From assembly GCA_965218885.1 (NCBI GenBank), contig OZ244713.1:2104638-2168637 (forward strand): 64,000 bases of DNA, written 5' to 3'. Within the stretch, counting starts at the first letter, position 1. Each line of letters begins with the position of its first letter. The notes under the pieces are model-generated. The model saw only the letters and a list, made by a program, of their open reading frames with translations. It made no database searches and was not told the DNA's origin. Shown here one piece after another: positions 200 through 45,330 of the stretch. A program made the position numbers and the translations under genes. The stretch is from a bacterium (GTDB lineage: Bacteria; UBA8248).

Positions 200-1270
200 C
201 AAGGGTGAATTTCACTATCACGCCCACGACTTGACGGAAAATAACTCACGACCTAGATTCAGGTAGACCACCCGTTTTACGGGAATGTGCATTGTCTGCA
301 ATTCGCATTCCATCCTAAACGGAGGTCTCCCGTGACAATCATTGAATTACTCGAGATGTTCCCGGATGAACCTACTGCGCGAAAGTGGTTTGAAGAAATC
401 CGCTGGCCTGGCGGAGAGCGCTTCTGCCCTCTCTGCGGAAGCGTGAGAACCACGCACGTCCACAACGAAAAACCCCTGCCTTATCGGTGCCTCGACTGCC
501 GACAGTTTTTCAGCATTCGGTCAGAAACCCCGATGCACCGAAGCAAGGTCCCGCTCCACAAGTGGGCTGCCGCGATATACCTGATGTCCACGGCCGTCAA
601 GGGGATCTCGAGCATCCGGCTCCACCGGTATATCGGCGTCACCCAGCGGACCGCGTGGTTCATGTTGCACCGCATCCGTGAGGGTTGGCTCAAGGGTGAC
701 GATCTGATGAGCGGTCCGGTCGAATTGGACGAGAGCTATATCGGGGGCAAGGAACGGAACAAGCACGCGAACAAGAAGTTGCGTCCGGGCGGTGGCGGAG
801 CCGGAAAGGTCGTGCTCCTCTGTATGCGCGATCGCGGAACGGAAACCATCCGTTCGGAACCGACCAAGGTATACGGCGAATGGGGATCCGGTTTGGACGC
901 CATGCAGTTGCGCGGCTTCGTGCGGCGCAATGCCGAAGCTGGAGCAACGCTCTTTACCGACAACAACCGCTCATATCGCCGGTTGCGCGAGTACAAGCAT
1001 TCCTACGTGACGCACAGCCGCGGCGAGTACGTTCGCGGCGACACGCACGTCAACGGATGCGAGTCGTTCTTCGCACTGTTCAAGAGAGGGTTTTTGGGAC
1101 CTATCATCAGATGAGCGTCAAGCATCTGCACAGATATTTGAATGAATTTGTCGGCAGATCGAATTCGAGGAAAATGGACACTATTCACCAGATGAAGGCT
1201 CTTGCTGGCGGGTGCGAAGGACGGCGTTTGACTTGGAAACAACTCACGTCATAAGTGATCATAAATTTAT
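200..1270 (+). mobile_element. IS1595-family (ISXO2-like) insertion sequence carrying the transposase below. The ends are approximate and inverted repeats were not identified.
   Basis: It contains a recognisable IS1595 transposase. The GC content drops sharply immediately to the right. The stop codon of the adjacent minus-strand gene lies within ~13 nt of the transposase stop. Confidence 0.45.
287..1254 (+). pseudogene. IS1595-family transposase that is frameshifted; the two ORFs 287-1114 and 880-1254 join with a -1 shift around 1095-1110.
   Basis: The N-terminal region has a zinc-ribbon-like CPLCGS...CLDCRQ motif and the core reads ...ESYIGGKERNKH... The C-terminal GTYHQMSVKHLHRYLNEFVGRSN motif, typical of ISXO2-like transposases, is found in the other frame after the KRGF/GTYH junction. 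The shift lies at a T5/G3 run, gggtttttgggacc. Confidence 0.7.
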
Positions 1271-3210: not shown

Positions 3211-3849
3211 CACACGTCATAGGTCAGGGGCGCGGCTATCGCCCTGACGAGCTTGAAGCGCATGCTGGCGTACTCGAGCATCGGACATGCGGGCTACGTG
3301 CTGATGGGCGTGGTGGCCACCATGAGCGTTGTGGACGGCAAGGTGACCTTCACATCGATAGGCATCAGCGCGGTGACTTTTTACCTTCTCGCCTACCTGT
3401 TCACGAACCTGGGAGCCTTCGGCATGTTGATTCTCGTGTGCCGGGAGGGCTACCGGGGAGACAACATCGAGGACTGGAGGGGAATCGGCCAAGCCCATCC
3501 CTGGGCGGGGATGGCCTTCGTGGTGTTCCTGCTATCGCTCGGCGGCATTCCGCCGACGGCCGGCTTCGTGGGCAAGCTCTACCTGTTCGCCGCGGCGGTG
3601 CAAAACGAGTATTACTGGCTCGCCGCTATCGGGCTCCTCATGAGCGCGGTTTCGATGTACTACTACGGGCGCATCATGATGGTGATGTTCATGGAGAACA
3701 GGGGAGAGAGCCAGGAGGTGATGAGTCTTTCGAGCGCGCCTTCTCTGTTTTTCGCGCTGGTGGTGCTGGTGGTGGCGACCCTGCTGCTGGGCATCTTCCC
3801 GGGCAGCTTCCTCGACGCGGCGAAGGGCACCGTCGCCGGGTTCATATAG
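3211..3849 (+). pseudogene. nuoN: 5'-truncated NADH-quinone oxidoreductase subunit N (NuoN/ND2 family) fragment. Only the C-terminal ~210 aa are present.
   Basis: ELKRMLAYSSIGHAGYVLMGV... followed by several TM helices is characteristic of the NuoN C-terminal half. The frame opens only at 3211, after a TAG. Upstream DNA is non-homologous AT-rich cassette DNA. Confidence 0.7.
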
Positions 3850-5458: not shown

Positions 5459-6472
5459 TCACAGCACTTTTGAAATTTCATCGGAATCAAATCGTTGAAG
5501 CGGAGAGGTTTTCCCGCCGCGTTGAATCATCACACCAGATTCAGGCGGGCATAATTTGCCGATACGAACACCCATCGCGCCCGTCGTTATGAGCGTTTCC
5601 CGCACGATTTCTTCTCCTTCGGCTGTAACCGCCAGTAAAAGCGCTCCTGATGTAATGACGCCCAAGGGGTCGAGTCCCAATGCTTCGCAAATCTTTTCCC
5701 CTTCAAAAGAGATGGGGATTTGACTCTCCTCCACGATTGCCCCCAAGCCTGCGGCTTCCGCCAATTCGTGAATACCTGTGGCGAGACCGCCCTCGGTCGG
5801 GTCGTGCATCGCGTGCACGCGGCCCGTACCGGCCGCCGCCAGAGCTTGCGACACTATACTGATGCCGGGAGAAACCAGATATCTTTTTGCATTCTCCAGT
5901 ATCTCGATATCCATGATGCTTTTCAGAAAATCGTATTTTGCATCCGCCAGGATCGCCGTTCCTTCAACAGGTATGGGGCGCGTAAGCAGAATCAAGTCAT
6001 CCGTACAAGCGTCCGCGCCTCGTATCAAATTCTCCTTGGATACTTCACCCAGCATGTGGCCCGAAAGAATCGGAAATTCCAATCCCGATGTAATCTCCGT
6101 ATGACCGCCGCATAAGGTAATGCCCAATTCAGTACAGGTATCTCCCACTTCTTCCCAAATACGGTTTATCATCGCCTCATCAGCGCGTCCTTCCGGCAAA
6201 AGGAGAGTCATCAGGAACCACAGAGGGGTAGCTCCCATACAAACGATATCGTTTGCGTTCACATGAACGGCGTAGCGTCCGATATGATGTTCCACAAACG
6301 TGATGGGATCTGATTTTACGACGAGATAACGATCTCCCATGTCGATAACGGCCGCGTCTTCTCCAACCTGTGGACCAACGATGAGGCGCGGGTGAGGATT
6401 CGCGTTTTTGAGTAAAGCGTCCAGCACGTCCGGCGGAAGTTTACCTACGGGAAATGAAGATTTATTCGTCAT
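5459..6472 (-). CDS. AIR-synthase-related protein of the PurM/HypE/ThiL superfamily (HypE-like).
   Basis: It shows the PurM-like N-domain pattern (GEDAAVIDMGDRYLVVKSDPITF) and the C-domain pattern (DPTEGGLATGIHELAEAAGLG). The start is chosen at MTNKSS. Confidence 0.55.
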   Translation of the reverse strand: MTNKSSFPVGKLPPDVLDALLKNANPHPRLIVGPQVGEDAAVIDMGDRYLVVKSDPITFVEHHIGRYAVHVNANDIVCMGATPLWFLMTLLLPEGRADEAMINRIWEEVGDTCTELGITLCGGHTEITSGLEFPILSGHMLGEVSKENLIRGADACTDDLILLTRPIPVEGTAILADAKYDFLKSIMDIEILENAKRYLVSPGISIVSQALAAAGTGRVHAMHDPTEGGLATGIHELAEAAGLGAIVEESQIPISFEGEKICEALGLDPLGVITSGALLLAVTAEGEEIVRETLITTGAMGVRIGKLCPPESGVMIQRGGKTSPLQRFDSDEISKVL

Positions 6473-6665
6473 CCTCTTACCATAAGTGGGAGGTTCAGCA
6501 ACATCAAGCCAGATATCTGGAGCACAAGGCGTTTCAATGTTGACGCCCGGGGTGGAGCGTTTTAGAATCCCGTCTTCCTGATAAAGGCATGGAAACACTT
6601 GCCTTTTACGGAAAATGGGCCGATAAGGAACAACCCTTGGTTGTCTGTCGATTGCTCCACATACT

Positions 6666-6741
<76 letters not shown>

Positions 6742-6768: not shown

Positions 6769-7332
6769 TCAATCCGTATTCGTGATTCCTTCTAATACAA
6801 GGTTTTTTCCGTTTATTTCGACAGTGCTCGTGAGTGGAACCGCCGTCTGAACCATTTGCTCGGCATAGCAGCCTTGCTTCGCCAATCGGATGATGTTCAG
6901 GATTTTCTCTTCCGCTTCGCTCGATTCCACCTTGAAATGCGTACGCACCCTTCGGCACCCTGAATTTACATCGCCCTTGAGGACGGAGCCTTTCAGAAAA
7001 TAATCGAATTCAACGCGGCAAGTGGCTTTCGCGAAGGTGGTTTTCGTCATATGGGCGTACCGCCCAAGCTGAGTCAACAGTCAGAATCCGACTCCCATGG
7101 CGATGTATGTGAGAGGCTGCGGATATCTGTCCTCTCCTCCGATGCGGGGTGGTTCGTCGCTAAAGACCTCAAAATGCCGGAAGCGTCCGATTTTGAGTTG
7201 TCCATCGTCCATCGTCTCGGTTTCTGCGAGCATGGTGATCTCATAACCGTCTTTTGGAAGTTCGGGTTTATCAATTGGTCTCTCGCCGGGCACGGTGCTC
7301 TCATGCCAGGGATAGTTTATGCTTTCCACCAT
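6769..7332 (-). CDS. OsmC/Ohr-family (peroxiredoxin-like) protein interrupted by a single in-frame TGA at 7081-7083. It is either a candidate selenoprotein with Sec in place of the first catalytic Cys, or a nonsense pseudogene.
   Basis: ORFs 7081-7332 and 6769-7077 lie in the same frame and are separated only by TGA: ...PLTYIAMGVGF-(TGA)-LLTQLGRYAHMTKTTFAKATCRVEF... The TGA falls where OsmC/YhfA-like proteins have their resolving/peroxidatic Cys (L..G.C..M motif). A second Cys (KATCRV) is retained. A GGGCG-GUA-CGCCC hairpin lies 16-30 nt downstream of the UGA. Confidence 0.5.
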
Positions 7333-7399
7333 ATTTGGTTGTCCTCCAGGGTTTGGACGGGAATGATTCTACTCTGAGAAATGATTGTTTATATGGGTA

Positions 7400-8149
7400 T
7401 TATTCCCATTTCAGCACACAGATGTAACCCTCTTGCGGAATGCTGACGAGCGGTTCCAAGTCTTCCTCTTTTTTGTGCATTTGGATGGTTTTCAAGTGTG
7501 CATACGCCTCCCAGAGCATGTGGCGAAACGTGTATTCCAGGTTGAAATGAAATAGTTCCGTATCCTCCGGGTCAATCCACACGCCTGTGCGATGGGCTTT
7601 GAGGGTGACGTTCTCGCGCCATTGGCGGACATTCTCGCCGGTTCCGGGCCGTATCATGCCCCGCGGCGCGCGCTCGGATATCTTTCTCCCGTCCCGGATG
7701 GATTCGGTCGTCTCCGCTCCCAGCACCTCCCAGGCGAGGGCGAACGAATCCCGCATGACGTCGATAAGGTCTTGAATTTGTGGGCAGTATTCGTCTTTCA
7801 TGATTCGCCCATCGAAGCGCTCGAACAACCCCTTATCGCGCGGAAGCTCATCAGTGAAGAGGATAGCTCCCCAGCGAATGAGCAGCCACCGGTAGGGCAG
7901 AGAGGCCACGTGGCTCACCTGATCCTGGATGGACCAGGAGCCCCAACTCTTCCCCTCTCTCGTTCTCCGCAATGTCCCCTCGGGGAGTCCTTCCGTTTCT
8001 TTTGCATATAATTCAACGACTTGCGGAATTTCGGGGAAAAGCGAGCGCGCTGAATTCTCTCGTTCCTGCATCTTCTTGATTCCTCCGGGCTGGTGTATGA
8101 TGCTCCGCAGTACTGGCCTGAATCGGGCCGGGGATCTCTCGGAAAACAC
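7400..8149 (-). CDS. DinB/YfiT-like (DinB_2 superfamily) putative metal-dependent hydrolase. This is the full-length copy.
   Basis: ORF of 249 aa. The SWSIQDQVSHVASLPYRWLL region resembles the DinB-family helix motif. A second partial copy lies at 11440-11775. Confidence 0.35.
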   Translation of the reverse strand: MFSERSPARFRPVLRSIIHQPGGIKKMQERENSARSLFPEIPQVVELYAKETEGLPEGTLRRTREGKSWGSWSIQDQVSHVASLPYRWLLIRWGAILFTDELPRDKGLFERFDGRIMKDEYCPQIQDLIDVMRDSFALAWEVLGAETTESIRDGRKISERAPRGMIRPGTGENVRQWRENVTLKAHRTGVWIDPEDTELFHFNLEYTFRHMLWEAYAHLKTIQMHKKEEDLEPLVSIPQEGYICVLKWE

Positions 8150-9050: not shown

Positions 9051-9752
9051 TTAGCGTTTGCCCCATTTTTTCTTCTCCACCGTCTCTTCTTCTATCTCAT
9101 AGAAGCCCTCGAGGCCGATCAAGTCCTCTACCCCCTGGCGGGCGGCCATGAACTCCTCATGCGTCATGCCCGTGTAATCGCCCGTCTTGCGCACTTCCTG
9201 TAAGGCTTTTTTCATGAAATGGAAACTGACGGTGAGATACAAAATGGCGCGCGATGCCGCCGCCGCCGCCCCGAAAGAGCCGCACGTGCCCGTGGCCCGC
9301 CATCCCTTCAGGCGGTGCGCGGCCATGTTGACCGCCATGCCCACCCGCGCCGCCGTCTCATAACCCGCCGATACCGCTTCTAGAAACGTTTTTCCGTCCG
9401 TTCCCCCAAGTTCACAGGCGGCCAGAGCCGCCGGGATTACGGCCACGCCGGGGTGAAGCTTGGATTTACGGTGCAGATCGTCAAAGATCAGGACGTGGGC
9501 AAGGATGCCGTTCGTAAGAGCAGCGGTGGCCGGGTCGGCCCCGAAATCCCGGCCGATGATCGTACAGGGCCCGTTTCCCGAAGCCGCTTCGGCGGCGCGC
9601 AGGTGAACGCCCGCCTCCTCGGTTCCCAAAGCCCCCAGCGCGCAGCCCAGGTGATCAAGCAGGCAGAACTTCAGAAAATCGGGTATCTCCTTGGGCATAT
9701 CCTCGAGGCGCAGCCCCGACATGAATCCGGCAAGTTGTTTCGAGCGATTCAT
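9051..9752 (-). pseudogene. Chimeric ORF in which the N-terminal ~170 aa of MmgE/PrpD (copy of 14513-15010) is fused in frame to the C-terminal ~65 aa of the PrpB-like gene (copy of 12674-12882). It is the product of an internal deletion in a duplicated segment.
   Basis: The N-terminus [16 protein letters not shown]...GTCGSFGAAAAASRA is ~90% identical to 13628-15010. The C-terminus ILYLTVSFHFMKKALQEVRKTGDYTGMTHEEF...KKKWGKR is identical to the end of 12674-13585. Confidence 0.7.
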
Positions 9753-9779
9753 CGTATCCCTTGGGTGCGATGACGTCTC

Positions 9780-10152
9780 GGCGCAGTGCGCGCACGCGAA
9801 CGGGGCCGACGGGACACTCAAGGCGCACTACAGCAACTGGCGCTGGGTGGTGGCGTCCTGCCGTGATGGTTTCGTGCATACGGCGCCTGTGGGTTCGTTT
9901 CGGGCGAATGGATTCGGATTGCACGATATGCATGGAAATGTATGGGAATGGGTAGTGGATTGTTGGAATGTAAATTATAAAGGCGGCCGGCGCGCCGGCC
10001 ACGGCCCCGGAAAAATAGCATTTGGAGAAGATTGCATTGATGTTTTAACATGGAAACGTTACAATACGGATAAATACTATTGCGATAAAGAAAATGTCCC
10101 ACCTGCATGCTGTACGAGAAAGGTTTCCGGGCGTGCGAACGCCCGTACATAG
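9780..10152 (+). pseudogene. FGE-sulfatase (formylglycine-generating enzyme/SUMF1-like) domain. Only the C-terminal fragment is present.
   Basis: [22 protein letters not shown] is the hallmark FGE-domain motif. The ORF's 5' portion overlaps the antisense strand of the chimeric prpD remnant and has no FGE N-terminal region. Confidence 0.55.
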
Positions 10153-20905: not shown

Positions 20906-22690
20906 ATGCCGGCCGGACGCACGAAAGCGAGCTCGAAAAAAGCGGCCTCGCGCCGCAAACCCATGAAGCGGCGCGCTTCCTCGGTGCCCGATCCGGTCGC
21001 GCTCGAGGTCTTCTCGAACGCCCTGCTCTCGGTGGCCGAGGAGATGGGCGCGGCGCTCATTCGCACGGCCTATTCCACGAACATCAAGGAGCGCCAGGAC
21101 GCCTCGACGGCCATATTCGACGCCGAAGGCCGCCTCATCGCCCAGGCCGAGCACATCCCCATGCACCTGGGCGCGATGCTGAGCATCATCCGCAACATTT
21201 TGAAGCGTTACCCGCTCGAGGAACTAAAACCCGGCGACGCTTTTCTGGCGAACGACGCCTATCACGGCGGCGGAACCCACCTCGCCGACGTCACGGTGGC
21301 CTCTCCGGTGTTCGAGGGTAAACGACTCATCGGCTTCGTCGCCAACATGGGCCACTGGCCCGACGTGGGCGGCATCAAGCCGGGCGCCGCGATGACCGAG
21401 GGCTGCAACGAGATATACCAGGAGGGCTTGAGGATACCGCCCATGAAAATCTTCAAAGAAGGCGAACTGCAAGAAGACCTCTTCTCCTTCATTCTCCTCA
21501 ACATGCGCTTTTCAGAAGACAGGCCGGCCGACCTCCGCGCGCAGGCCGCATGCAACCAGCTCGGCGTCCGCCGTCTCCAGGAACTCAGCGAGAAATACGG
21601 GGCCGAGCGTTTTCTCGAACTCGTGGAGGGCGTGCTCGACTACAACGAGCGAACGATTCGCTCGAAGATCAAGGAACTGCCCGAAGGAACATGGGACTTC
21701 GAGGACCAACTCGACGACGACGCCCACGTGCCCGGCCCGGTTCCCCTGAAGGTGACGCTCACCATCTCCCACAGCCCCGAGCCGCACATGGTTTTCGATT
21801 TCACGGGTTCGAGCCATCAGAGAACGGGCGGCGTGAACGTGGTCTACGAAGCGTTGTTCGCCACCGTCGCCTACGCGCTCAAAGCGACCATCGACCCCGA
21901 ACTCTGGTCGAACGCGGCTTTCGAGCGCGTGGTGAGGCTCGTCGCGCCCGAGGAGAGCATCGTGAACCCGAACGCGCCCGCGCCCGTGGGCGGACGCGGC
22001 ACCACCTGCCAGCGGCTGGCCGATCTGCTCATCGGCGTCATGTCCAAAGTGGCGCCCGAGCGCGTCTGCGCCTGCGGCCACGGCACCACCTCCATCAACC
22101 TCCACGGCTTCGACACCATCCGGCAAAGGCCGTTCATCTGCATCGACGGCATCGGCGGCGGCATGGGCGGCCGCGATACGAGCAATGGCATGGACGCCGT
22201 TCAGATTCACACGAACAACATACCGAACCTGCCGGTCGAGATTCTGGAGAGTGAATATCCCATCCGGGTGGAGCGCTTCGAACTCGTACCCGACAGCGGC
22301 GGCGCGGGACGCCACCGGGGCGGACTCGCCACGCGCAAGGATTTCCGGATGCTCAGCGACACGGGCTTCATCGCGCACGCCGACCGGCACGATTTCTCCC
22401 CCTGGCCTCTTTACGGCGGCAAAGAGGGGGCCCGGGGAATTCATCTGAAAAATCCCGGTGAGGAGAACGAAACGAAGCTGCCGAGCAAGGGCGGCCCCCT
22501 CGAGTTTCGAGAGGGCGAGGTGCTTAGGTGCCAGTCGGCCGGGGCCGGTGGATACGGCGATCCGGCAGAGCATTCCCCCGAAGAGTTGGCGATCGATCTC
22601 GCGGACGGGAAAATTTCGCTCGAATACGCCAGGGCGTCCTACCCGGAACCACTGGTCGCCGAAGCGCTGAAACGCAAGGAGACGCTCTAG
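20906..22690 (+). CDS. Hydantoinase B/oxoprolinase-family protein (HyuB-like; acetone/acetophenone carboxylase-type subunit). This is pair 1.
   Basis: 594 aa of the HyuB family. The next gene starts 3 nt after the stop. Confidence 0.8.
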   Translation: MPAGRTKASSKKAASRRKPMKRRASSVPDPVALEVFSNALLSVAEEMGAALIRTAYSTNIKERQDASTAIFDAEGRLIAQAEHIPMHLGAMLSIIRNILKRYPLEELKPGDAFLANDAYHGGGTHLADVTVASPVFEGKRLIGFVANMGHWPDVGGIKPGAAMTEGCNEIYQEGLRIPPMKIFKEGELQEDLFSFILLNMRFSEDRPADLRAQAACNQLGVRRLQELSEKYGAERFLELVEGVLDYNERTIRSKIKELPEGTWDFEDQLDDDAHVPGPVPLKVTLTISHSPEPHMVFDFTGSSHQRTGGVNVVYEALFATVAYALKATIDPELWSNAAFERVVRLVAPEESIVNPNAPAPVGGRGTTCQRLADLLIGVMSKVAPERVCACGHGTTSINLHGFDTIRQRPFICIDGIGGGMGGRDTSNGMDAVQIHTNNIPNLPVEILESEYPIRVERFELVPDSGGAGRHRGGLATRKDFRMLSDTGFIAHADRHDFSPWPLYGGKEGARGIHLKNPGEENETKLPSKGGPLEFREGEVLRCQSAGAGGYGDPAEHSPEELAIDLADGKISLEYARASYPEPLVAEALKRKETL

Positions 22691-22692
22691 CC

Positions 22693-24816
22693 ATGGCCTC
22701 GAGAAAGAAAGAAAAATATCGCGTCGGCATCGACATCGGCGGCACGTTCACCGACGTCGTCCTCATGGGAGAGGAAGAGGGGCTCATCGCCTCCTACAAG
22801 GTGGACACGACGCCGGTAAATCTGGAGGGCTGTTTCGTGGGCGGACTCCTGAGGGCGACGAAAGGCATATCCCCAGAAGAGGTGGGGCGCATCCTCCACG
22901 CCACTACGGTGGCCACCAACACCGTTTTGGAATCAAAAGGCGCGCGCACCGCCCTGGTCACCACCCGGGGGTTTCGGGACATTCTCGAGATCGCCCGCCA
23001 GCGCAGGCCGAGTCTGTACAACTTACAGGAGGTGAAGGCCAAGCCCCTCATCCCCCGGCGGCTCAGCTTCGAGGTGAACGAGCGGCTGGGATGGAACGGA
23101 GACGTCGTCACCAAACTGACGAAAGCGGAACTCGACCGGCTAGCGGATGCGCTCGATGCCTCGGGCGCCGAATCGGTGGTGATCGCGCTGTTGTTCTCCT
23201 ACGTGAATCCAGCCCACGAGCTTCGGGTGAAAAAACATCTCCTCCGCGCGCTTCCGGGCCGCCACATCGTGGCCTCCTCGGACATCACGCCCGAATTCCG
23301 CGAGTTCGAGCGAACCAGCACGGCAGCGCTCGTCGGCTACCTGAAACCCATATTCGCGCGCTACACGGAAAGGCTGCACGATGAGGTATCCAGGCTCGGC
23401 CACCGCCCCGAAAAGCTGCTCATCATGAACTCCGCCGGCGGGCTGATGTCGCCGGCATCTGCGCGCGAACGCCCCCACACGCTCATCGAATCGGGCCCCG
23501 CGGCGGGCGTCATCGCCGCCACCGTCCTCGCGCGGGAGATCGAAGAACCCGACATCATCTCCTTCGACATGGGCGGCACCACCGCCAAGACGAGCCTGAT
23601 CGAGGGCGGCGTCTACAAGACCACCACCGAATACGAAATCGGGATGGGCATGCACCAGTCCCTGGCGGTCCGTTTTACGGGATATCCCGTCAAGACGCCC
23701 GTCATCGACCTGACCGAATGCGGCGCGGGCGGCGGCTCCATCGCTTCGGTGGACGGCGTGGGCGTTCTGAAAGTCGGCCCCCACAGCGCGGGTTCGGAAC
23801 CAGGCCCGGTCTGCTACGGGCGCGGGGGCGGGGAACCCACCGTCACGGACGCCAACCTCGTTCTGGGCCGCCTGAACCCGGATTATTTCGTCGGCGGAGA
23901 ATCGCGTCTCCATCTTGATTACGCGGAAAAGGCCATCGAAGAGAAGATAGCCGAACCACTCGGGCTATCCACCATGGAAGCCGCCGCGGGTATCATCGAA
24001 GTCGTGAACGCCCACATGGTTCGCACCCTGCGCGTGATCTCGGTCGCCAGAGGCTATGACCCGCGCGATTTCGCGCTCATCAGCTTTGGCGGCGCGGGCC
24101 CCCTGCACGCGGCCGACCTGGCGAACGAACTCGGCATACCGCGCATCATCATCCCCGAGGCGCCGGGCGTTTTCTCCGCCCTCGGCCTGCTCTGGGCGGA
24201 CATGAGAGCGGACTTCACGGCCACGACCCGACTGAGCCTCGACAAAGAAAACGCGGAGCGAATCGCCGCTCTCATGGCCGAGCTCGAAGCGGAGGCGGAC
24301 GAATGGCTCAAAGGCGAAAAGGCGCCCCGGACGAAGCGCATGCTCGTGCGCTCGGCCGACCTGCGCTACCCGCTTCAAAACTATGAGATCAACGTGCCGC
24401 TGCCCGGCGGAAAGATAGGCCCCGCGTGGCTCGGCAAGGCGCGAAGGGCGTTTCACGACGCGCATCTGCGCCAGTACAGCTATTGCGATGAGGCGGAAAG
24501 CGTTCAGGCCGTGACCCTTCGCGTCTCGGCCATCGGCCTCACGGATCGCATTCGCCCGAAAAAAATCGCCGCTGGCTCCCAAAGTCCCAAGGCGGCGTTC
24601 AAGGGCGAGCGGGGGGTGCATTTCCAGGAGGCCGGAAATTTCATCGACTGCCCCATCTATGAACGGGAGTTTCTGAAAGGCGGAAACCGGGTTCAAGGCC
24701 CTGCGGTCATCGAACAACCCGATTCCACGGTGCTCATCCCGCCCTCGTTTCGCGTGGAGGTGGATTCTCTGGGCAGATTCGTTATGACGCGCAAGAAAAC
24801 GAGCCGGACGAAATGA
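22693..24816 (+). CDS. Hydantoinase A/oxoprolinase-family protein (HyuA-like ATPase). This is pair 1.
   Basis: The N-terminus YRVGIDIGGTFTDVVLM is the hallmark ASKHA-fold motif. Confidence 0.85.
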   Translation: MASRKKEKYRVGIDIGGTFTDVVLMGEEEGLIASYKVDTTPVNLEGCFVGGLLRATKGISPEEVGRILHATTVATNTVLESKGARTALVTTRGFRDILEIARQRRPSLYNLQEVKAKPLIPRRLSFEVNERLGWNGDVVTKLTKAELDRLADALDASGAESVVIALLFSYVNPAHELRVKKHLLRALPGRHIVASSDITPEFREFERTSTAALVGYLKPIFARYTERLHDEVSRLGHRPEKLLIMNSAGGLMSPASARERPHTLIESGPAAGVIAATVLAREIEEPDIISFDMGGTTAKTSLIEGGVYKTTTEYEIGMGMHQSLAVRFTGYPVKTPVIDLTECGAGGGSIASVDGVGVLKVGPHSAGSEPGPVCYGRGGGEPTVTDANLVLGRLNPDYFVGGESRLHLDYAEKAIEEKIAEPLGLSTMEAAAGIIEVVNAHMVRTLRVISVARGYDPRDFALISFGGAGPLHAADLANELGIPRIIIPEAPGVFSALGLLWADMRADFTATTRLSLDKENAERIAALMAELEAEADEWLKGEKAPRTKRMLVRSADLRYPLQNYEINVPLPGGKIGPAWLGKARRAFHDAHLRQYSYCDEAESVQAVTLRVSAIGLTDRIRPKKIAAGSQSPKAAFKGERGVHFQEAGNFIDCPIYEREFLKGGNRVQGPAVIEQPDSTVLIPPSFRVEVDSLGRFVMTRKKTSRTK

Positions 24817-24835
24817 CGACGCTAGCCGCGCGCCT

Positions 24836-26554
24836 TCATTCGCCGCGCAGTTTCATCGTCGAGGCTTCATCGAGCGCACCCGCTTCATCGACCGCGACCC
24901 TGTAGACCTCCCGCGCGCGCTGGGGAGAGATTTTCCCGTCCCGCACGTCGAGAGCCACCAGAGCCGGTTCACGCTCCTGCGGCGGACCGTGCCCTCCCGC
25001 TCCGGGAGTGACGTGGACATACACCGTTCCTTCGGGTACGTGAATCGTCTCGTTTCCCTTGAGACGCTTCTCGTTCGGGGTGTCGGGGTCGAGAACATTC
25101 TGGCAGATGGTGCCGTCGTGACCACCGTGAAGCCCCCACGGGGCGTGTTCCGCCCTTCCTGAGCGAACCTGGAGCACTCCGCCCTCGGGCGCGAGAATGC
25201 GAATCTTGCGCCGCACGCCCAGACCGCCCCGAAACTTCCCCGCGCCCTCCGAATCGGGCTCGTAGCCGTATTCCTCCACCAATACCGGATAGGTGCTCTC
25301 CACCATCTCGACGGGCGAGTTCGCCATGTTGGCGGCGACGTTCGCCACGCCGTCGATGCCGTCCATGTGAGGATGACCGCCCCAAGCGCCGACGAGCGCT
25401 TCGCTGAGTATGCTGGGCGCGCCTTTTTTCGTAGCGCCCACCGTATAGCGCGTGGTGCCGCCCTCGCTCGCCGCCCTTACCAGATGCGGAGCCGCCTGCC
25501 CCAGGGCGCCGAAAACGCAATCCGCCACCCGGTAGCCCACCACGCCCATCGCGCCCACGGCCGCCGGGAAGCTGGGATGAACGAGCGTTCCCTCGGGCGC
25601 GACGAGTCGCAGCGGGCGGAAAAAACCCGCCGAGTTGGGAATCTCCTGGTTCATGATGGAGCGCACCGCGAGATAAAACGCCGAGCGCGAATACGCGAGA
25701 GGAGAGTTGATGGCGGTGGGCGCCTGTAAATCCGTGCCCGTGAAATCGGCGGTCAAATCATCCCCGTCTATCGTGACGGTGACGAAGAGGCGCTGCGGCC
25801 CGCCATCCATGCCGTCGTTATCGAGCCAATCCTCAAAAGAATAGACGCCGTCGGGCATCGCGGCGATTTCCGCGCGCGCCATCTTCTCGCTGCGGTCGAG
25901 CAAGCCCGCCATGGCGGCGCGCATCACCTCGTTGCCGTAGCGCCGCGCCAGGGCGGAAAAACGCCTCTCCCCCAGGCGGCAGGCCGTGAGCTGGGCTTCC
26001 AAGTCGCCGAAAAAATCTCTCGGAAGCCGGGAGTTTTTCTCGATCAAGGCCATGAGCGTCGCATCGCGCTTCCCGCCGCGCTCCAGCAAGAGGGGCGGGA
26101 TCCTGAGGCCCTCGGCGAAAATCTCCCGGCTGTTCACCGGAACGCTTCCCGGCACGTGGCCGCCGACGTCCGTCATGTGGGCCATGGCGACCGCATGGCC
26201 CATCAATTCATCGGCGCAGAATATCGGCGTGACGAGCACGATGTTGGGCAGGTGCATACCGCCCTCGTAGGGGTCGTTCATGATGAGGGCGTCGCCCGGG
26301 CGGAGGTTTCCCTCGAACCGTTTGAGCATGGCGGCCACAGCGGTCGGCAATGCGCCCAGGTGAATCGCCATTCCCACGCCCTGAACCACCATCTCCCCTC
26401 GCGGGTTGCAAAGCGCGACGGTGAAATCGAGCAGGTCGCGGACCAGGGGGGAATAGGCCGTACGAACGATGACGGCGGCCATTTCATCGGCCACGCTGAA
26501 CAATCCGCGTTCCACGACGGAGGTCGTCACAGGGTCCAGACGCTTTTCAAGCAT
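24836..26554 (-). CDS. Hydantoinase B/oxoprolinase-family protein (HyuB-like). This is pair 2, transcribed divergently.
   Basis: It is a paralog of 20906-22690. The start is chosen at MLEKRLDPV (26554), which has a GGAGAA RBS. Confidence 0.75.
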   Translation of the reverse strand: MLEKRLDPVTTSVVERGLFSVADEMAAVIVRTAYSPLVRDLLDFTVALCNPRGEMVVQGVGMAIHLGALPTAVAAMLKRFEGNLRPGDALIMNDPYEGGMHLPNIVLVTPIFCADELMGHAVAMAHMTDVGGHVPGSVPVNSREIFAEGLRIPPLLLERGGKRDATLMALIEKNSRLPRDFFGDLEAQLTACRLGERRFSALARRYGNEVMRAAMAGLLDRSEKMARAEIAAMPDGVYSFEDWLDNDGMDGGPQRLFVTVTIDGDDLTADFTGTDLQAPTAINSPLAYSRSAFYLAVRSIMNQEIPNSAGFFRPLRLVAPEGTLVHPSFPAAVGAMGVVGYRVADCVFGALGQAAPHLVRAASEGGTTRYTVGATKKGAPSILSEALVGAWGGHPHMDGIDGVANVAANMANSPVEMVESTYPVLVEEYGYEPDSEGAGKFRGGLGVRRKIRILAPEGGVLQVRSGRAEHAPWGLHGGHDGTICQNVLDPDTPNEKRLKGNETIHVPEGTVYVHVTPGAGGHGPPQEREPALVALDVRDGKISPQRAREVYRVAVDEAGALDEASTMKLRGE

Positions 26555-26662
26555 GCGTTCTCCGTGCCAAGATGGTTCAAATATCAAAGTAGAGCGGGAA
26601 GCTATCATAACACCACGGTGGGACGCCATTCCCGGGCGCTTCCGCCTCCAGAAATCGAGATC

Positions 26663-28759
26663 ATGAGCGGACAATCTTTTCGAATCGGGGTGGACATCGG
26701 AGGTACGTTCACCGACATCGTTGTAATCGACGAGCAGGGATGCGTTCACACGGCCAAAGCCATCTCCACGACGGACGCCTACGAGCGAGGCATCCTGGAA
26801 ACGCTTGAAAATCTGCTGGCGGAGAACCGCTTATCCACCGGAGACTGCGCCGAGGTGGCCCATGGAACCACCGTGGCCACCAACGCCATCATCGAGCGCG
26901 AAGGCGCGCGGACCGGCCTCATCACGACCCGGGGTTTTCGGGACGTCCTCGAGCTGAGGCGAATCCGCATCCCCACCCAGTATGACTTGAACTGGACGAA
27001 ACCTCCGCCTTTGGTGGAGCGGTTCCTCCGCGCGGAAGTGCGTGAGCGAATGAGCCACACGGGCGAGGCGCTCGAAGCCCTGGACGCGGATTCGGCCCGA
27101 AGCGCCATCGCCGAACTCACCCGCCAGGGGGTGGAATCCATCGCGGTCTGTCTGTTGAACGCCTATGCGAATCCCGGGCATGAGCGCGCCGTGCTCGACA
27201 TCATCCGCGCTGAAAGCCCGGGCGTCGACGTCTCCATCTCCTCGGACATCCTGCCCGAAATGAGGGAATACGAACGCACCAGCACGACGGTCATCAACGC
27301 TTTCGTGATGCCGGTGGTCAAGCAGTATCTCGAATCGCTCGAAGCGGGCCTGCGCGCCCGGGAGTTCACGGCCCCGCTGCTGATCATGCAGTCAAACGGC
27401 GGAATCATGACAGCGGAAGTGGCCCGCGCGCAGCCCATTCACATCATCGAATCAGGACCCGCCGCAGGGGTCGTCGCGGCGCATCACCTCGCCAGGCGCA
27501 TTAACGTGAACAACGCCATCACGATGGACATCGGAGGCACCACGGCCAAGGCGAGCCTTATCGAAAACGGCGAGACGACATACTCCCCCGAATACGAGGT
27601 CGGCGGCGGATTCTCCCAGTCGAATCGCCTCGCGCGCGGCGGGGGCTACCTTCTGCGCGCCCCCACCCTCGATATCGCGGAAATCGGCGCGGGCGGCGGC
27701 AGCATCGTCTGGATCGACAAGGGAGGCGCTCTGCAGGTGGGACCCAAGAGCGCGGGCGCGAATCCCGGTCCCGCATGTTATGGACTCGGCGGCGAGGAAC
27801 CCACCCTGACGGATAGCTGCCTGCTCTTGGGCTATCTCGATTCTGAGGGCATCGCGGGCGGTTCGGTGAAGCTCGATTCATCCGCCGCCGAGCGCGCCCT
27901 CGGCGAGAAAGTGGCGAAGCCTCTGGGTCTCGAGATCACGACGCTCGCCCACGGAGTCGTTCAGATCGCGACGTCCAACATGACGCGGGCGATTCGTTCG
28001 GTCTCCACCGAGCGCGGCAAGGACCCTCGGGATTTCAGCCTGTTCGCCTTCGGCGGAAACGGGGGGCTGTTCGCGGCCTCCGTGGCGCGAGAACTGGAAC
28101 TCCCCCAAGTGGTCATTCCCCCTTCTTCGGGTATTTTCTCCGCCTTCGGGCTGCTTTATTCCGACCTGGAGCACCACTTCACCCAAACCCTTTTGGGAAG
28201 AACGGACGAACTCGACCCGGAGTCGGTCGAGGCCTATTGGGCGCATCTCGAGGTCGAGGCGCGCGATTTGCTCTCCAGGGAGGGATACCCGGGCGAGAGA
28301 TGCCGCCTCCGCAGGCGCGGGGAGCTCCGCTACTACGGGCAAACGCATGAGCTGTCGATTCCCTGGCCCGAGAACGGCTCGGCCGGCGATGCGCTCGCGC
28401 AAGCCTCCGAGGCCTTTGAAGATGAACACGAGCGCACCTACGGACACCGGGGAGGCGACGGACTCGTGGAACTGGTGAACCTCCACCTGGTCGCCACGGG
28501 CGTTCCCGAAACGCCGCGTTTCCCCGACTCGCTCTTGTTCCCGGAAATCCTGAAAACCAAGACGGGCGAGCGGCAAGCCTATTTCGGCGCCGAGATGGGC
28601 TGGGCCGCCGCGAAACTCATCAACCGCTCCATGCTCGATGAAACCATGACAAAAGGGCCTTTCATCTTACAGGAGTTCGACGCCACCATACTCGTTCCCC
28701 CCGATTTCACCGTCGCGAGGGATGCGTTCGACAACATCATCATGCGGCTTGAACGATGA
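26663..28759 (+). CDS. Hydantoinase A/oxoprolinase-family protein (HyuA-like). This is pair 2.
   Basis: The N-terminus FRIGVDIGGTFTDIVVIDEQG is the HyuA motif. It is a paralog of 22693-24816. Confidence 0.85.
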   Translation: MSGQSFRIGVDIGGTFTDIVVIDEQGCVHTAKAISTTDAYERGILETLENLLAENRLSTGDCAEVAHGTTVATNAIIEREGARTGLITTRGFRDVLELRRIRIPTQYDLNWTKPPPLVERFLRAEVRERMSHTGEALEALDADSARSAIAELTRQGVESIAVCLLNAYANPGHERAVLDIIRAESPGVDVSISSDILPEMREYERTSTTVINAFVMPVVKQYLESLEAGLRAREFTAPLLIMQSNGGIMTAEVARAQPIHIIESGPAAGVVAAHHLARRINVNNAITMDIGGTTAKASLIENGETTYSPEYEVGGGFSQSNRLARGGGYLLRAPTLDIAEIGAGGGSIVWIDKGGALQVGPKSAGANPGPACYGLGGEEPTLTDSCLLLGYLDSEGIAGGSVKLDSSAAERALGEKVAKPLGLEITTLAHGVVQIATSNMTRAIRSVSTERGKDPRDFSLFAFGGNGGLFAASVARELELPQVVIPPSSGIFSAFGLLYSDLEHHFTQTLLGRTDELDPESVEAYWAHLEVEARDLLSREGYPGERCRLRRRGELRYYGQTHELSIPWPENGSAGDALAQASEAFEDEHERTYGHRGGDGLVELVNLHLVATGVPETPRFPDSLLFPEILKTKTGERQAYFGAEMGWAAAKLINRSMLDETMTKGPFILQEFDATILVPPDFTVARDAFDNIIMRLER

Positions 28760-32084: not shown

Positions 32085-32825
32085 ATGAAGAAGTGGCGCT
32101 CATCCTTGGTTCCCGTCGGTTTTCTCCTCACTTCTTTGCTCATCGTCACATTCCTTTTCCCCACCGAAACCAAGGCTTTTGAGCGGGATTCCAAATGGGA
32201 TTCCGTCTATTCGAAGGGTAGCCGGCTTTACCTGACACACTGCGCGGCCTGCCACGGGAAGGACGGCGAAGGAGGCGTGGGTCTCCCCCTGAACCTGCAA
32301 AGCTTCCTGTCCGTCGCACCCGAAGGGTACATCCGCCGCTCTATCTTCTACGGACGGTTGCCGCGTCATATGCTCCCGTTCGGGATTTTCCTGAAGAAAG
32401 AAGACATCGAAGCCATCGCCTCCTACGTGCGAAGCTGGCAGCTCCGCGACTATGCAGGGATCGATCAAAACCGGGTGGCGGGCTCCGTTTCCCGCGGAAA
32501 GCTCTTCTTCGACGGGATGTGCTCCGGTTGCCATGGGCGGGACGGCCTCGGCGGCCCCCATGTGGGTGGAGGGCACGTGACCAATGCCATGGCGGGTTAC
32601 GCCGGACCCGCCCTGAACAACCAGGGTTTTCTGAAATCCGCCACCGACGGCTACATCAAGGCGACGATGATGCAGGGCCGGGTCGGTACGCCGATGGGCG
32701 CCTACCTCAAAGGAAAGCAAGGGATGGTGGAACTGACCGAGGAAGAGATTAACGACATCGTCGCTTACATCCGCACCTGGGAAAAGCATGGTTCGGGACC
32801 TGTAGACCCATGGAGGGCCAAGTGA
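32085..32825 (+). CDS. Diheme c-type cytochrome (class I-like) with a signal peptide.
   Basis: It has two CxxCH motifs (CAACH and CSGCH). Its stop overlaps the next start (TGATG). Confidence 0.8.
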   Translation: MKKWRSSLVPVGFLLTSLLIVTFLFPTETKAFERDSKWDSVYSKGSRLYLTHCAACHGKDGEGGVGLPLNLQSFLSVAPEGYIRRSIFYGRLPRHMLPFGIFLKKEDIEAIASYVRSWQLRDYAGIDQNRVAGSVSRGKLFFDGMCSGCHGRDGLGGPHVGGGHVTNAMAGYAGPALNNQGFLKSATDGYIKATMMQGRVGTPMGAYLKGKQGMVELTEEEINDIVAYIRTWEKHGSGPVDPWRAK

Positions 32826-35461
32826 TGCCGAGGTTTAATCGCCGTACGTTTCTGCAGTCGTCCACTGCCCTGGCCACCGGACTCGCCATGGGCGGAACCC
32901 TGACCCGCGACAAGGAGTTGTTTCAACTCGTCGGAGCAGCGGAAGGCGCCCAGGACACGCGAAAGCTGGTCCCCACGCAATGCCCCTACTGCGGAGTGGG
33001 ATGCCACACCTACTACGTCGTCGAGAATGAAAAGATCGTGGCGTGCATTCCGGACAAGGACTCCCCCGTCAACCTGGGTCTGCAGTGCATCAAGGGTCTC
33101 ACGGCCGCGGAGGCCCTCTACGTCGACCGGTTGGACGAGATCCTGATACGCAAGGACATGTCCAACCCGCTGACCGGGCACGTCTCGAAGACGAAAGGGC
33201 GTTTCGATGACGATGTCTTCCGGGTCGGCACGTGGGAAGAAGGCATGGACATCGTCTCCAACATGGTCGTCGGGATCGTGAAGAAACACGGGGGAAACTC
33301 CGTCGGGATCTATCAGTCCGGCCAGTTGACCATGGAGGAGCAATGGCTGGACAACATCCTCTACAAGGGCGTTCTCCAGTCGAATACCATCGAGGCCAAC
33401 GCCCGGATGTGCATGACCTCGGCCGTGACGGGCTACATTCACAGCCTCGGAAGCGACCATCCACCGGGGAACTATTCCGATATCGAAGATGCCGACTTCA
33501 TCAATCACTGGGGCCATAACGCGCGCGGGTCGCACCCCGTCCTCTTCTGGCGCGTGGCCGCCACCAAGGAAAAACGGAACATCCCGACCATGGTGGTCGA
33601 CCCGCGCTATACCGGGACCATGGACGGCTATGCCCAGGTCAACCGCAACAACAGCCTCTCGATCACCATTCGCCCCAACGGCGATCTCTCCCTTCAGAAC
33701 GCCATCGCCCACACCCTGATGAAGGAGTTCCCCCAAGCCGTGGACGAGGCCTTCATCCGGCAGCACACGGACGGGTTCGACGATTACCGCGAGGGAATCA
33801 TGGCCCGGTACAGCCCGGAGCAGGTCATCGATCGAACGGGGATCGCCCCCTCCGTGGTCAGGCGGATCGCCTCGATCTGGGCGGACGCCACCCTGAAGGG
33901 TCGGCGGCGCAAGAAAGGCGGCGTCCTCTCTTTCTGGGGGATCGGGTACAACCAGTCGATCCATGGACAGCACCGCACCATCAACCTCATCAACCTCCAT
34001 CTGCTGACCGGAAACATCGGCCGGCCGGGAGCCGGCCCGTTCTCCATGACGGGACAGCCCAACGCCATGAGCGAGCGCCTCATGGGCGGCCTTACCGGAC
34101 GGCTTCCGTTCAACGAGGGCATCAAGAACACCGGGCACCGCCGGAAGATAAACGAGGCCTGGGGCCTCCCTCCGGGACGGCTCGACGTCACCGCCGCCGC
34201 CCCGAACAAGGGCATGACCATCGGCATGTTCGAGCGCGCCTTGAAGGGTGAAGTCAAGGTGATGCAGTTCGCCTACGCCACCCACGTGGATCTGCCGGAG
34301 GTGGAAACCCTCATCCGGCCCGCCATCACCAAGACGTTTACCTACATGGTGGAGGCCTACCGGCACGCCCCGAATCTTCTCTACGGCGATGTCATCTTCC
34401 CCGCCGCCACCCACGGGGAGAAAGGGGGGGTGTACCAGAACAGCGAGCGAAAGATGTACGTCACGGACAAGGCCATGGAGCCGCCCAGGAACTGCAGGCC
34501 CGATCTGGACGTCATCATCGACGAGGGCAAGTCCATCGCCAGGAAACTCGGCCTGGACGCGGAGAAGATCTTCCCCTATGAGAGGAAGGCGGATGGTTTC
34601 TATGACCCGGAGGAGGTCTATCGGGACATCTGCCGGGCCAGCAAGGGAACGGATGCGGATTTGACGGGAATCGTGGAGGTGGAAAAGCGGGACAAGCTCT
34701 CTCCCTATGAGCAGCTCCGAAAGCGCAAGGGGATATTTTATCCCGCCCCCACGTATGAGATCGCCAAAGAGGGAGGGGTCGCGCGCAAGTACATGGCGCA
34801 GGAGAAGGGCTGGAAGGACAAGCCCTACAGCGCCTTCCGCCGCAAGAACGGCAGGGCGAAGTTCAAGCTCACCGAGCAGGACTATTCACGCGCCAAGGAG
34901 CTGACGGATATCTTCGCGAAAGCGGGCAAAGACCCGAATTTCTTCGCCATGGACCATTACGACGTCCTGATCCAGATGCGCGACAACGGGTTGACGCCGG
35001 AACTTCCGGATTTCGACTACTACGGAAAAGCCATGGCGGAGATTCAGAAAGCCGACAAGTACCCGTTCTGGCTGAGCCTGGGAGTCGTCTTCGAGCACTT
35101 CCACACCACCAAGACGATCCGGGCGCCCACCACCCGCCGGCTGGTGCCGGAACAGTATCTCGAATTAAATCCCCGCGACGCTCGAAAACTGGGAATCGAA
35201 GACGGGGAATGGGTCCGGGTCGTAACGCCGCGGGGTAGTTACGAGGCGCGTGCCAGCATCGGCACGAAGAGCAAGGTCAAACCCGCGCGCAACAAGGTCA
35301 TGCCGGGGCAGCTGTTCTCCCCGTGGAACTTATCCGTCGCGGACAGCGCCGACCCGAAGAAGAACCGCTGGCTCGTCAACGCGGTCACGCACCGGGCCTT
35401 TGATCCGGTATCCGGCCAGGTGGACTTTAAGCACGTAAAAGCAAGGATCGAGAAGATATGA
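32825..35461 (+). CDS. napA: Periplasmic molybdopterin oxidoreductase catalytic subunit of the NapA (periplasmic nitrate reductase) family, with a Tat signal.
   Basis: It has a twin-arginine signal (RRTFLQSSTALATGLAMGG). The N-terminal 4Fe-4S site CPYCGVGC...VACIPD...LQCIKG parallels NapA CRFCGTGC...VACQGD...LNCIKG. CMTSAVTGY aligns with the NapA Mo-ligand Cys segment CMASAVVGF. LLTGNIGRPGAGPFSMTGQPNA matches NapA [22 protein letters not shown]. The C-terminal VFEHFHTT is like NapA VLEHWHTG. Confidence 0.7.
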   Translation: MPRFNRRTFLQSSTALATGLAMGGTLTRDKELFQLVGAAEGAQDTRKLVPTQCPYCGVGCHTYYVVENEKIVACIPDKDSPVNLGLQCIKGLTAAEALYVDRLDEILIRKDMSNPLTGHVSKTKGRFDDDVFRVGTWEEGMDIVSNMVVGIVKKHGGNSVGIYQSGQLTMEEQWLDNILYKGVLQSNTIEANARMCMTSAVTGYIHSLGSDHPPGNYSDIEDADFINHWGHNARGSHPVLFWRVAATKEKRNIPTMVVDPRYTGTMDGYAQVNRNNSLSITIRPNGDLSLQNAIAHTLMKEFPQAVDEAFIRQHTDGFDDYREGIMARYSPEQVIDRTGIAPSVVRRIASIWADATLKGRRRKKGGVLSFWGIGYNQSIHGQHRTINLINLHLLTGNIGRPGAGPFSMTGQPNAMSERLMGGLTGRLPFNEGIKNTGHRRKINEAWGLPPGRLDVTAAAPNKGMTIGMFERALKGEVKVMQFAYATHVDLPEVETLIRPAITKTFTYMVEAYRHAPNLLYGDVIFPAATHGEKGGVYQNSERKMYVTDKAMEPPRNCRPDLDVIIDEGKSIARKLGLDAEKIFPYERKADGFYDPEEVYRDICRASKGTDADLTGIVEVEKRDKLSPYEQLRKRKGIFYPAPTYEIAKEGGVARKYMAQEKGWKDKPYSAFRRKNGRAKFKLTEQDYSRAKELTDIFAKAGKDPNFFAMDHYDVLIQMRDNGLTPELPDFDYYGKAMAEIQKADKYPFWLSLGVVFEHFHTTKTIRAPTTRRLVPEQYLELNPRDARKLGIEDGEWVRVVTPRGSYEARASIGTKSKVKPARNKVMPGQLFSPWNLSVADSADPKKNRWLVNAVTHRAFDPVSGQVDFKHVKARIEKI

Positions 35462-35542
35462 ATCCTCGATGAAACGAGAGGGATGGGGAGGGGACTCTCG
35501 CCTTCCTCATCTTTCCGGGCTTGGAGTTTTGGAGGTGGGAGA

Positions 35543-36133
35543 ATGGGCCTAAACAGACGGAGGTTCCTTCTTGCGGGGGCGCTGGCGCTATCCGGCGTCG
35601 CCTCCTGGGTCGCGGCCGGGCGGAGGGGTTTCGCGAGTTCCAAAACGCGTTTTCGCCGTCTCCTTCGCCCGCCCGGGGCTCTGAGCGAGCAGGATTTCCT
35701 CGATCGGTGCATTCGCTGCGCGAGGTGCGCCGCCGTCTGTCCGAACACCGCCATTCAGATGGCCGGGTTCGGGGAGGGCCTTCGAAACCTCAACACACCC
35801 TACATCGTCCCCCGCGAACAGGCTTGCATGCTTTGTATGAAGTGCACCGAAGTCTGCCCGACGGGGGCCTTGACCCAAATCGCCCCGGACGACGACTCCG
35901 TCCGCACTCAGGTCAAGATGGGACGCGCGGTGGTGGATCAATCCATGTGCTACTCGTACCAGAAGCGCACCTGCGGGGTGTGCATTCGCGCCTGTCCTTT
36001 TCCCGGGGTGGCCATGAAGACCGGAATGTACGAGCAGCCCATCGTGACGGACGCCTGCGTGGGTTGCGGGCTCTGCGAGCGCGCCTGCATCCACGTTCCG
36101 CAGGCGATCCGGATCGTCCCGGTGGAGTCCTGA
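35543..36133 (+). CDS. napG: NapG/MauM-family periplasmic ferredoxin (4x[4Fe-4S]) with a Tat signal.
   Basis: It has RRRFLLAGALALSG and the NapG-signature LRPPGALSEQDFLDRCIRCARCAAVCP. Four Cys clusters are present. Confidence 0.75.
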   Translation: MGLNRRRFLLAGALALSGVASWVAAGRRGFASSKTRFRRLLRPPGALSEQDFLDRCIRCARCAAVCPNTAIQMAGFGEGLRNLNTPYIVPREQACMLCMKCTEVCPTGALTQIAPDDDSVRTQVKMGRAVVDQSMCYSYQKRTCGVCIRACPFPGVAMKTGMYEQPIVTDACVGCGLCERACIHVPQAIRIVPVES

Positions 36134-36137
36134 TACC

Positions 36138-37661: not shown

Positions 37662-37778
37662 GACAACCCAGACTCTCGCCGGCACGCCCTGGGCCCTTCG
37701 CCTAGTCGACTGGACCCTCGTGGAGTCGCTGAACGCCCTGGGGGCGCTGGCGGTCGCCGGCTGGTCTGAGGATGCGCG

Positions 37779-45189: not shown

Positions 45190-45330
45190 AGATTTTTCAG
45201 CCGATTCCGGACGGGTATCCCAGCCTCTTGGTTCGCCCACAATTCCTGCGACAGGATTCACGCGGAATCTCTCACCCTTTGTCCCAAGGGTGAGACGAGC
45301 GCGCCCTATCACTCCCTCCGGTCGATGGCC
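45190..45330. repeat. ~230-nt repeat unit (degenerate livF 3'-end remnant, a short hairpin and the last ~8 codons plus 3' flank of an MMPL gene). Related copies lie at ~48340-48470 and ~47940-47990, in part at ~50950-51050 (the intact livF end), and at the 3' end of MMPL copy 1 (~41345-41410).
   Basis: Shared strings were read directly: ...tttcagccgaKYccggacggg...cctcgttcgcccMMaattSc...aggattcacgSg...ccctttgYYccaagggtRagaYgRgc...tcactccYtccgRtcRatggcc. Minus-strand translation of the 45300-45330 copy gives ...AIDRRE*, the MMPL C-terminal motif. Confidence 0.6.

Follow-up and report, generated by a model that had tools for sequence, protein, structure and literature searches.

An OsmC-like gene with an in-frame UGA and a compact SECIS-like hairpin in a UBA8248 bacterium: a probable further member of a known selenoprotein family

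The locus and its surroundings

We analysed a 64-kb stretch of contig OZ244713.1, referred to below as the window, whose features are listed in Table 1. Its first 10 kb carry an OsmC-like gene on the minus strand that is interrupted by a single in-frame TGA. The gene was found to lie in a conserved setting. A 249-aa ORF precedes it in all 22 orthologous loci compared (L001-L022; 69-90% identity) and was not found beside the paralogues; this ORF may be co-transcribed with the putative selenoprotein gene. On the 3' side, a tRNA-Phe gene sits close by on the opposite strand in 20 of the 22 loci, the exceptions being L010, where none was found, and L021, where it lies about 5.6 kb further off. An AIR-synthase-family (AIRS) gene and a HAD gene likewise follow the OsmC gene in 20 loci, again not in L010 and L021. 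Across the loci the OsmC gene is 88-97% identical, which is higher than its neighbours (approximately 80%, 60% and 83%), and the AIRS gene evolves fast: where the OsmC gene stands at about 95% identity, the AIRS gene stands at about 60%. The AIRS gene was considered as a selD and rejected, as its selD score is below the cutoff, its N-terminus lacks a Cys/Sec-Lys loop and the opposite-strand tRNA-Phe gene stands between it and the OsmC gene.

It was noted that the first 8 kb or so of the window have a G+C content of 0.50-0.52, compared to 0.54-0.67 in the remainder. The cytochrome P450, NuoN-like and PrpD fragments were examined as further TGA-interrupted genes and set aside as remnants with multiple stops. 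Genes for the A and B subunits of hydantoinase/oxoprolinase occur in two adjacent sets at 20906..28759; their start sites are uncertain because of heavy overlap between listed ORFs (24836..26749 and 26156..28759). On the plus strand, a cluster at 32085..38357 contains genes for a dihaem cytochrome c, for an 883-aa molybdopterin oxidoreductase that has an Fe4S4 domain, and for three ferredoxin-type 4Fe-4S proteins. The 883-aa frame of the oxidoreductase is uninterrupted and thus holds no Sec codon.

Table 1. Features of the window discussed in the text, with coordinates relative to its first nucleotide
Feature	Coordinates	Strand	Remarks
IS1595-family transposase	287..1114		
NuoL/M/N-type C-terminal fragment	3253..3849		apparent remnant
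AIR-synthase-family (AIRS) gene	5459..6670	minus	hypE 109.6 bits (cutoff 251.6); selD 95.6 bits (cutoff 125)
tRNA-Phe (GAA)	6666..6741	plus	only tRNA in the window; 27 nt past the OsmC stop codon
OsmC-like CDS, probable selenoprotein	6769..7332	minus	ATG 7332..7330; predicted Sec residue 84; stop TGA 6771..6769
Cys155 codon (QGCYAE)	6870..6868	minus	probable resolving cysteine; invariant in alignments A2 and A4
Cys105 codon (KATCRV)	7020..7018	minus	extra family Cys; near-invariant in alignment A1, invariant in A2 and A4
SECIS-like hairpin	7066..7052	minus	6-bp helix and GUA triloop, over codons L89-H94
In-frame UGA	7083..7081	minus	predicted U84, motif U-L-L-T (UxxT)
Shine-Dalgarno-like GGAGG	7343..7347	minus	10 nt 5' of the ATG; direct sequence reading
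249-aa ORF	7400..8149	minus	unmatched in Pfam and NCBIfam; 67 nt between its end and the start of the OsmC gene
PrpD/MmgE N-terminal fragment	9051..9821		apparent remnant
Hydantoinase/oxoprolinase B/A pair	20906..22690 and 22528..24816	plus	
Second hydantoinase/oxoprolinase set	B 24836..26749; A 26156..28759	B minus; A plus	
Xanthine-dehydrogenase-type molybdenum enzyme	38954..41254		follows the 32085..38357 cluster
Cytochrome P450 C-terminal fragment	45290..45772		

Reading frame and family membership

The ORF list on which the first-pass annotation was based splits the OsmC gene into two ORFs, 7081..7332 and 6769..7077, which that annotation had proposed to be one frame broken by a single TGA. 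Direct translation agrees: the minus strand from 7332 to 6769 reads as 83 sense codons, the TGA, 103 sense codons and a terminal TGA, 188 codons in all, for a product of approximately 186-187 residues with Sec included. The residues around the TGA, YIAMGVGF-*-LLTQLGRY, had been likened to the first conserved Cys motif of OsmC proteins, and Cys homologues do align there.

Profile queries were run with the 187-residue translation, in which Cys replaced the in-frame stop. The NCBIfam model NF041052, 'OsmC-related (seleno)protein', was matched at 160.8 bits (curated cutoff 95), with residues 43-175 covering profile positions 12-144 of 144, and the Pfam OsmC domain PF02566 at 45.1 bits (cutoff 27.5). 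A search of a large protein collection returned ten full-length homologues (P0001-P0010; 43-56% identity), all of which carry Cys at the TGA-aligned position in the context G-F-C-L-L-T-Q. The same search returned fragments that begin just past the TGA position and one sequence with Trp there, the pattern that gene callers yield from TGA-containing copies. The nearest solved structures (3cje, 2opl, 2onf and 9wo1) all have Cys at this position as well. The alignment with Cys homologues that had been suggested as a check therefore places Cys opposite the TGA in P0001-P0010, in two genomic copies with a TGC codon (L069 and L070, described below) and in the solved structures.

The second redox position required more care. 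The first-pass annotation had pointed to the Cys of KATCRV (C105) as the retained second Cys. This residue is indeed present and conserved; the second Cys of the solved relatives, however, aligns with C155 and not with C105, as seen in 3cje (KKGCFLEQ) and 2onf (EKYCFISR). C105 itself is conserved in 3cje and absent from 2opl and 2onf. In the alignment with solved relatives, U84 and C155 occupy the two canonical OsmC/Ohr redox positions. The Cys homologue P0001 (56% identical) was modelled with AlphaFold at pLDDT 79, and the model matched only OsmC/Ohr structures. In this model C92, the equivalent of U84, lies on helix 81-103, and C163, the equivalent of C155, lies where helices 149-162 and 164-170 meet. 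Every family feature that could be assessed at the level of sequence was found in the window gene, and we consider with high confidence that the region encodes a single OsmC-like selenoprotein of the COG1765/YhfA-type OsmC branch represented by NF041052.

Conservation of the TGA and selection on the downstream frame

Species-representative genomes were scanned with alignment A2, which gave 78 loci. Exactly this codon is TGA in 75 copies of the gene, drawn from 38 MAG species; most of the MAGs are labelled Nitrospinota, Nitrospinaceae or Tectomicrobia, and one each is labelled Chloroflexi, Acidimicrobiales and Thermoleophilia. Judging by isolate names, several of these MAGs appear to be sponge-derived. 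Two copies, from Mycobacterium (L069) and Solirubrobacteraceae (L070) MAGs, carry TGC at the codon. The nearest orthologues share 88-97% identity with the window protein across residues 1-187.

An open frame of 96-122 codons follows the TGA in 73 of the 75 copies. Of the two exceptions, one runs into a contig end and the other is a short frame in L072, where a paralogue at 6232 (Nitrospinota MAG PW3.concoct.202) has 28 open codons after the TGA; this copy may be decaying or may contain a frameshift from assembly. Comparing the window gene to the other copies, we obtained median dN/dS values of 0.09 for the part 5' of the TGA and 0.16 for the part 3' of it. In the comparison with L001, the post-TGA part gave dN 0.031 and dS 0.655, and post-TGA dN/dS values lay at approximately 0.05-0.16. 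The low downstream dN/dS together with the open frame indicates that the post-TGA part is translated and under purifying selection. It was also noted that among the ordinary stop codons of the window TGA is the most frequent, ending 20 of the 34 Pfam-supported genes, and that many OsmC genes of the set themselves terminate in TGA. From this we conclude that TGA has not been reassigned.

A compact hairpin 3' of the UGA

The first-pass annotation had reported a GGGCG-GUA-CGCCC hairpin 3' of the UGA at 7053-7065. The core was located exactly there (7065..7053 on the minus strand), and one further U-A pair widens it to the extent given in Table 1. Numbered from the U of the UGA, the pairs run from U18-A32 to G23-C27; the helix starts 15 nt and the loop 20 nt past the UGA, the latter falling inside the bSECISearch consensus range of 16-37 nt. 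Single-sequence folding of 60 nt gave z = -0.83, with 32 of 200 shuffles folding as well, and folding of the 33-nt core gave z = -2.35 (4 of 200 shuffles). On the window sequence alone the hairpin is not clearly above chance, and its significance comes from the comparison of homologues.

Covariation was assessed on 67 distinct TGA-form sequences, aligned without gaps. In the 6-bp helix 96.8% of cells are paired, and three of the six pairs change on both sides (U-A/C-G/G-C; G-C/U-A/A-U; C-G/G-C/A-U), giving helix variants such as GGGCG/CGCCC, GCGCG/CGCGC, GAGCG/CGCUC, CUCGCG/CGCGAG and GACGCG/CGCGUC. The covariation score was 0.191 compared to 0.045 in shuffles, a value reached by none of 500 shuffles, and shifting the partner columns abolished the helix pairing. 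The central compensatory change couples position 2 of codon +6 (Gly GGG, Ala GCG, Glu GAG, Ser UCG or Thr ACG) to the wobble base of the Ala codon +9 (GCC, GCG or GCU). The two innermost pairs are invariant and lie over conserved Arg-Tyr codons, so they hold no covariation information on their own. A lower helix in the minimum-free-energy fold (U12-A37, C13-G36, A14-U35) was rejected, since one pair (21-46) is unpaired in 63 of the 67 sequences and the other two never vary.

Synonymous sites in the hairpin were found to be constrained. Codon +6 ends in G and Arg +7 is encoded by CGG in all 72 sequences, and Tyr +8 is encoded by UAC in all 71. Third-position entropy is 0 bits at +6 and +7 and 0.11 at +8, compared to a gene mean of 1.19 bits. 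Another conserved Tyr, eight codons 5' of the UGA, is encoded by UAC 52 times and by UAU 20 times. The hairpin is absent from all four Cys-form genes for which DNA was examined (L069, L070, L079 and L082). Two of the Cys forms retain R-Y-A, encoded as CGA UAC GCC and CGU UAU GCC, without a hairpin.

No Rfam SECIS family matched the window at gathering thresholds, nor did any match 6950..7150 at E-values up to 10. Rfam SECIS models are lineage-specific, and this result lowers only the case for membership in those particular families. We infer from its position and conservation that the hairpin probably acts as a bacterial SECIS, to which SelB would bind.

Probable selenocysteine decoding and alternative readings

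The first-pass annotation had regarded selenocysteine as a credible reading of the UGA, and the match to NF041052, the Cys/TGA pairing, the hairpin conserved in TGA forms only and the purifying selection downstream all bear this out. Judged from these comparative data, the in-frame TGA is very probably a genuine selenocysteine codon. The UGA at 7083..7081 would then be decoded as selenocysteine and translation would run on for 103 codons, with the hairpin predicted to recruit SelB, GTP and Sec-tRNA(Sec) to the ribosome. Delivery by SelB-GTP-Sec-tRNA(Sec) is the established route of bacterial Sec decoding.

We searched for the corresponding machinery. ARAGORN found no tRNA-Sec in the 64-kb window or in any of the 78 related loci, nor did selA, selB or selD turn up in the window or in related loci totalling 820 kb. 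Pfam scans of approximately 40 window genes gave no SelA or SelB, and the sole SelD-like protein with an AIRS domain was the product of the rejected AIRS gene. For the SelB G1, SelA PLP and SelD N-terminal signatures, motif scans of the window and related loci yielded two spurious matches and nothing else. Related genomes have been reported to use selenocysteine on a large scale. The MAG FO_M_Nitrospinota_01, from which L026, L059 and L061 derive, was described with 54 selenoprotein genes, and two more genomes of the GTDB phylum UBA8248 with 48-50; the same study took at least two Sec pathway genes as its criterion for a Sec biosynthetic system. In a study of sponge microbiomes, SelA and SelB COGs were found to co-occur in most symbiont bins. 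Between the window gene and the copy in L026 (FO_M_Nitrospinota_01) identity is 78%; gene identity together with synteny suggests that the organism of the window belongs to that MAG's lineage.

Other selenoprotein genes were also sought in the window, where a codon-usage scan for in-frame TGA codons gave only the OsmC gene as a candidate. Two in-frame-TGA matches near 63 kb were attributed to off-frame ORFs over unlisted minus-strand genes. A scan of all loci for a hairpin plus TGA returned mostly off-frame artefacts in GC-rich DNA; a recurrent match, 'ACEDEP..L*.HPFQ', has GC1 > GC3 and looks like an antisense frame.

Three other readings of the TGA were weighed. In the first, the UGA is read through without selenium by a near-cognate or suppressor tRNA that inserts Trp, Cys or Arg, with help from the hairpin, in a genome devoid of Sec machinery. 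Such a genome would agree with the failure to find Sec machinery in the window and related loci, and the clearly translated downstream frame would be explained by any form of read-through. However, pairing of Cys and TGA forms at a conserved redox Cys is a signature of Sec, a curated selenoprotein model recognises the gene, the hairpin shows the placement and the small G-containing loop of a SECIS, and related genomes are reported as Sec users with approximately 50 selenoproteins each. We regard selenium-free read-through as very unlikely.

In the second, the TGA is a true stop, and the locus would be either a nonsense pseudogene or two small genes of 83 aa and 93-102 aa. Database entries can be cited in its favour, as GenBank holds an 83-aa 'hypothetical protein' (MYA94910.1) identical to the N-terminal half of the window gene and the protein collection includes a C-terminal ORF of 93 aa; other gene fragments also lie within the first 10 kb of the window. 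Set against this, 73 of the 75 copies, which span several phyla, retain both the TGA and the open frame behind it, at the dN/dS values given above, each half alone would be half an OsmC domain, and the second half has neither a conserved start codon nor a ribosome-binding site of its own. Termination at this codon is therefore highly improbable.

The third, in which TGC or TGT was misread or misassembled as TGA, has in its favour only the general possibility that attends metagenome-assembled sequence, and is effectively excluded: the same TGA recurs in 75 copies from 38 MAG species in independent assemblies, including complete long-read chromosomes, and the RNA hairpin accompanies the TGA forms only, which leaves a negligible chance.

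Proposed enzyme mechanism

With the UGA read as selenocysteine, Sec84 is predicted from the homologue model to take the place of the first conserved OsmC/Ohr Cys on a long helix. By analogy with OsmC/Ohr, its selenolate would attack a hydroperoxide or other oxidised substrate. Cys155 would then resolve the selenenic acid to a selenenylsulfide, as in two-Cys peroxidases, and a cellular thiol reductant might reduce the selenenylsulfide and so regenerate the enzyme. The resolving Cys is likely C155 rather than C105, by comparison with the solved relatives. For this branch of the OsmC proteins the peroxidase mechanism is putative and drawn by analogy.

Paralogues, distribution and annotation

Most of these genomes were found to possess a second copy elsewhere at approximately 67% identity, and some up to four. 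Copies occur as tandem pairs (L026 at 5637 and 6250; L048 at 5790 and 6378; L052 at 1262 and 1868) and dispersed, with 2-4 per genome, such as L007 and L028 on one chromosome. Every duplicate carries its own TGA and its own hairpin variant. The neighbours of the L028 paralogue (2-hydroxyacid dehydrogenases, an aquaporin and an FAD oxidoreductase) were uninformative for function. The GCGGUACGC core of the hairpin was also found in the copies from the Chloroflexi, Acidimicrobiales and Thermoleophilia MAGs. It is possible, as a tentative proposal on which we place rather little confidence, that in the clade labelled Nitrospinota/Tectomicrobia the family has expanded to 2-4 paralogues per genome, and that it carries a family-specific minimal class of SECIS that moves with the gene by horizontal transfer. 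If this were true, the minimal SECIS with the GCGGUACGC core could serve as a compact, portable recoding signal.

The practical value of the present case lies in annotation. Gene callers split the gene at the TGA, and the active-site residue and half of the domain are thereby lost. The cluster of fragments of the MYA94910.1 type has 43 members, on contigs of up to 4.39 Mb, which indicates that the gene is routinely mis-annotated. The 75 TGA copies together with the four Cys forms with DNA also provide a clean case of covariation and synonymous constraint in a very small SECIS-like element, and the gene adds one more case for a lineage reported to have among the largest bacterial selenoproteomes. 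Existing knowledge of selenoproteins is left unchanged by it.

Comparison with known systems

OsmC-like proteins (COG1765) with the motif UxxT were described as a new selenoprotein family from the Sargasso Sea by Zhang, Fomenko and Gladyshev (2005), and reviews of 2022 and 2026 list the family likewise. The first-pass annotation was correct that such selenoproteins had been described before; it had placed them in Sec-utilising anaerobes, whereas the source was oxic surface-ocean metagenomes (Sargasso Sea and GOS), not specifically anaerobes. The window gene is an ordinary further member of a selenoprotein family known since 2005 and no new discovery. As in that family, the window protein has an OsmC domain with the predicted Sec in UxxT at the first conserved Cys, Cys homologues exist, and a SECIS-like stem-loop with a small G-containing loop follows the UGA. 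Compared to the NF041052 domain it has an N-terminal extension of approximately 40 residues, with no essential difference from the family. The clade to which this copy belongs comprises sponge-associated and other environmental MAGs, labelled Nitrospinota/Tectomicrobia, with 2-4 paralogues per genome, sometimes in tandem.

The closest solved relative is 3cje (Jann_2040 of Jannaschia sp. CCS1, from structural genomics), with a profile E-value of 9.4e-18 and the top Foldseek match. All three Cys positions are common to it and the window protein, including the CxxTQ motif; it has Cys instead of Sec and is itself an uncharacterised protein. More distantly, E. coli OsmC (1qwi/1nye) and P. aeruginosa Ohr (1n2f) have the same fold, as judged from the P0001 model, and the same two redox positions. 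They share 10-19% identity with the window family in structure-based alignments and differ in that the window protein would have Sec in place of the first Cys and carries the extra C105.

Bacterial SECIS elements have been described with a small apical loop that contains a G. Like those of the E. coli fdhF type and the bSECISearch consensus, the element here is a stem-loop inside the coding sequence just 3' of the UGA with a G in a small loop. Compared to the bacterial consensus it is very compact, with 6 bp, a triloop and an invariant GCGGUACGC core.
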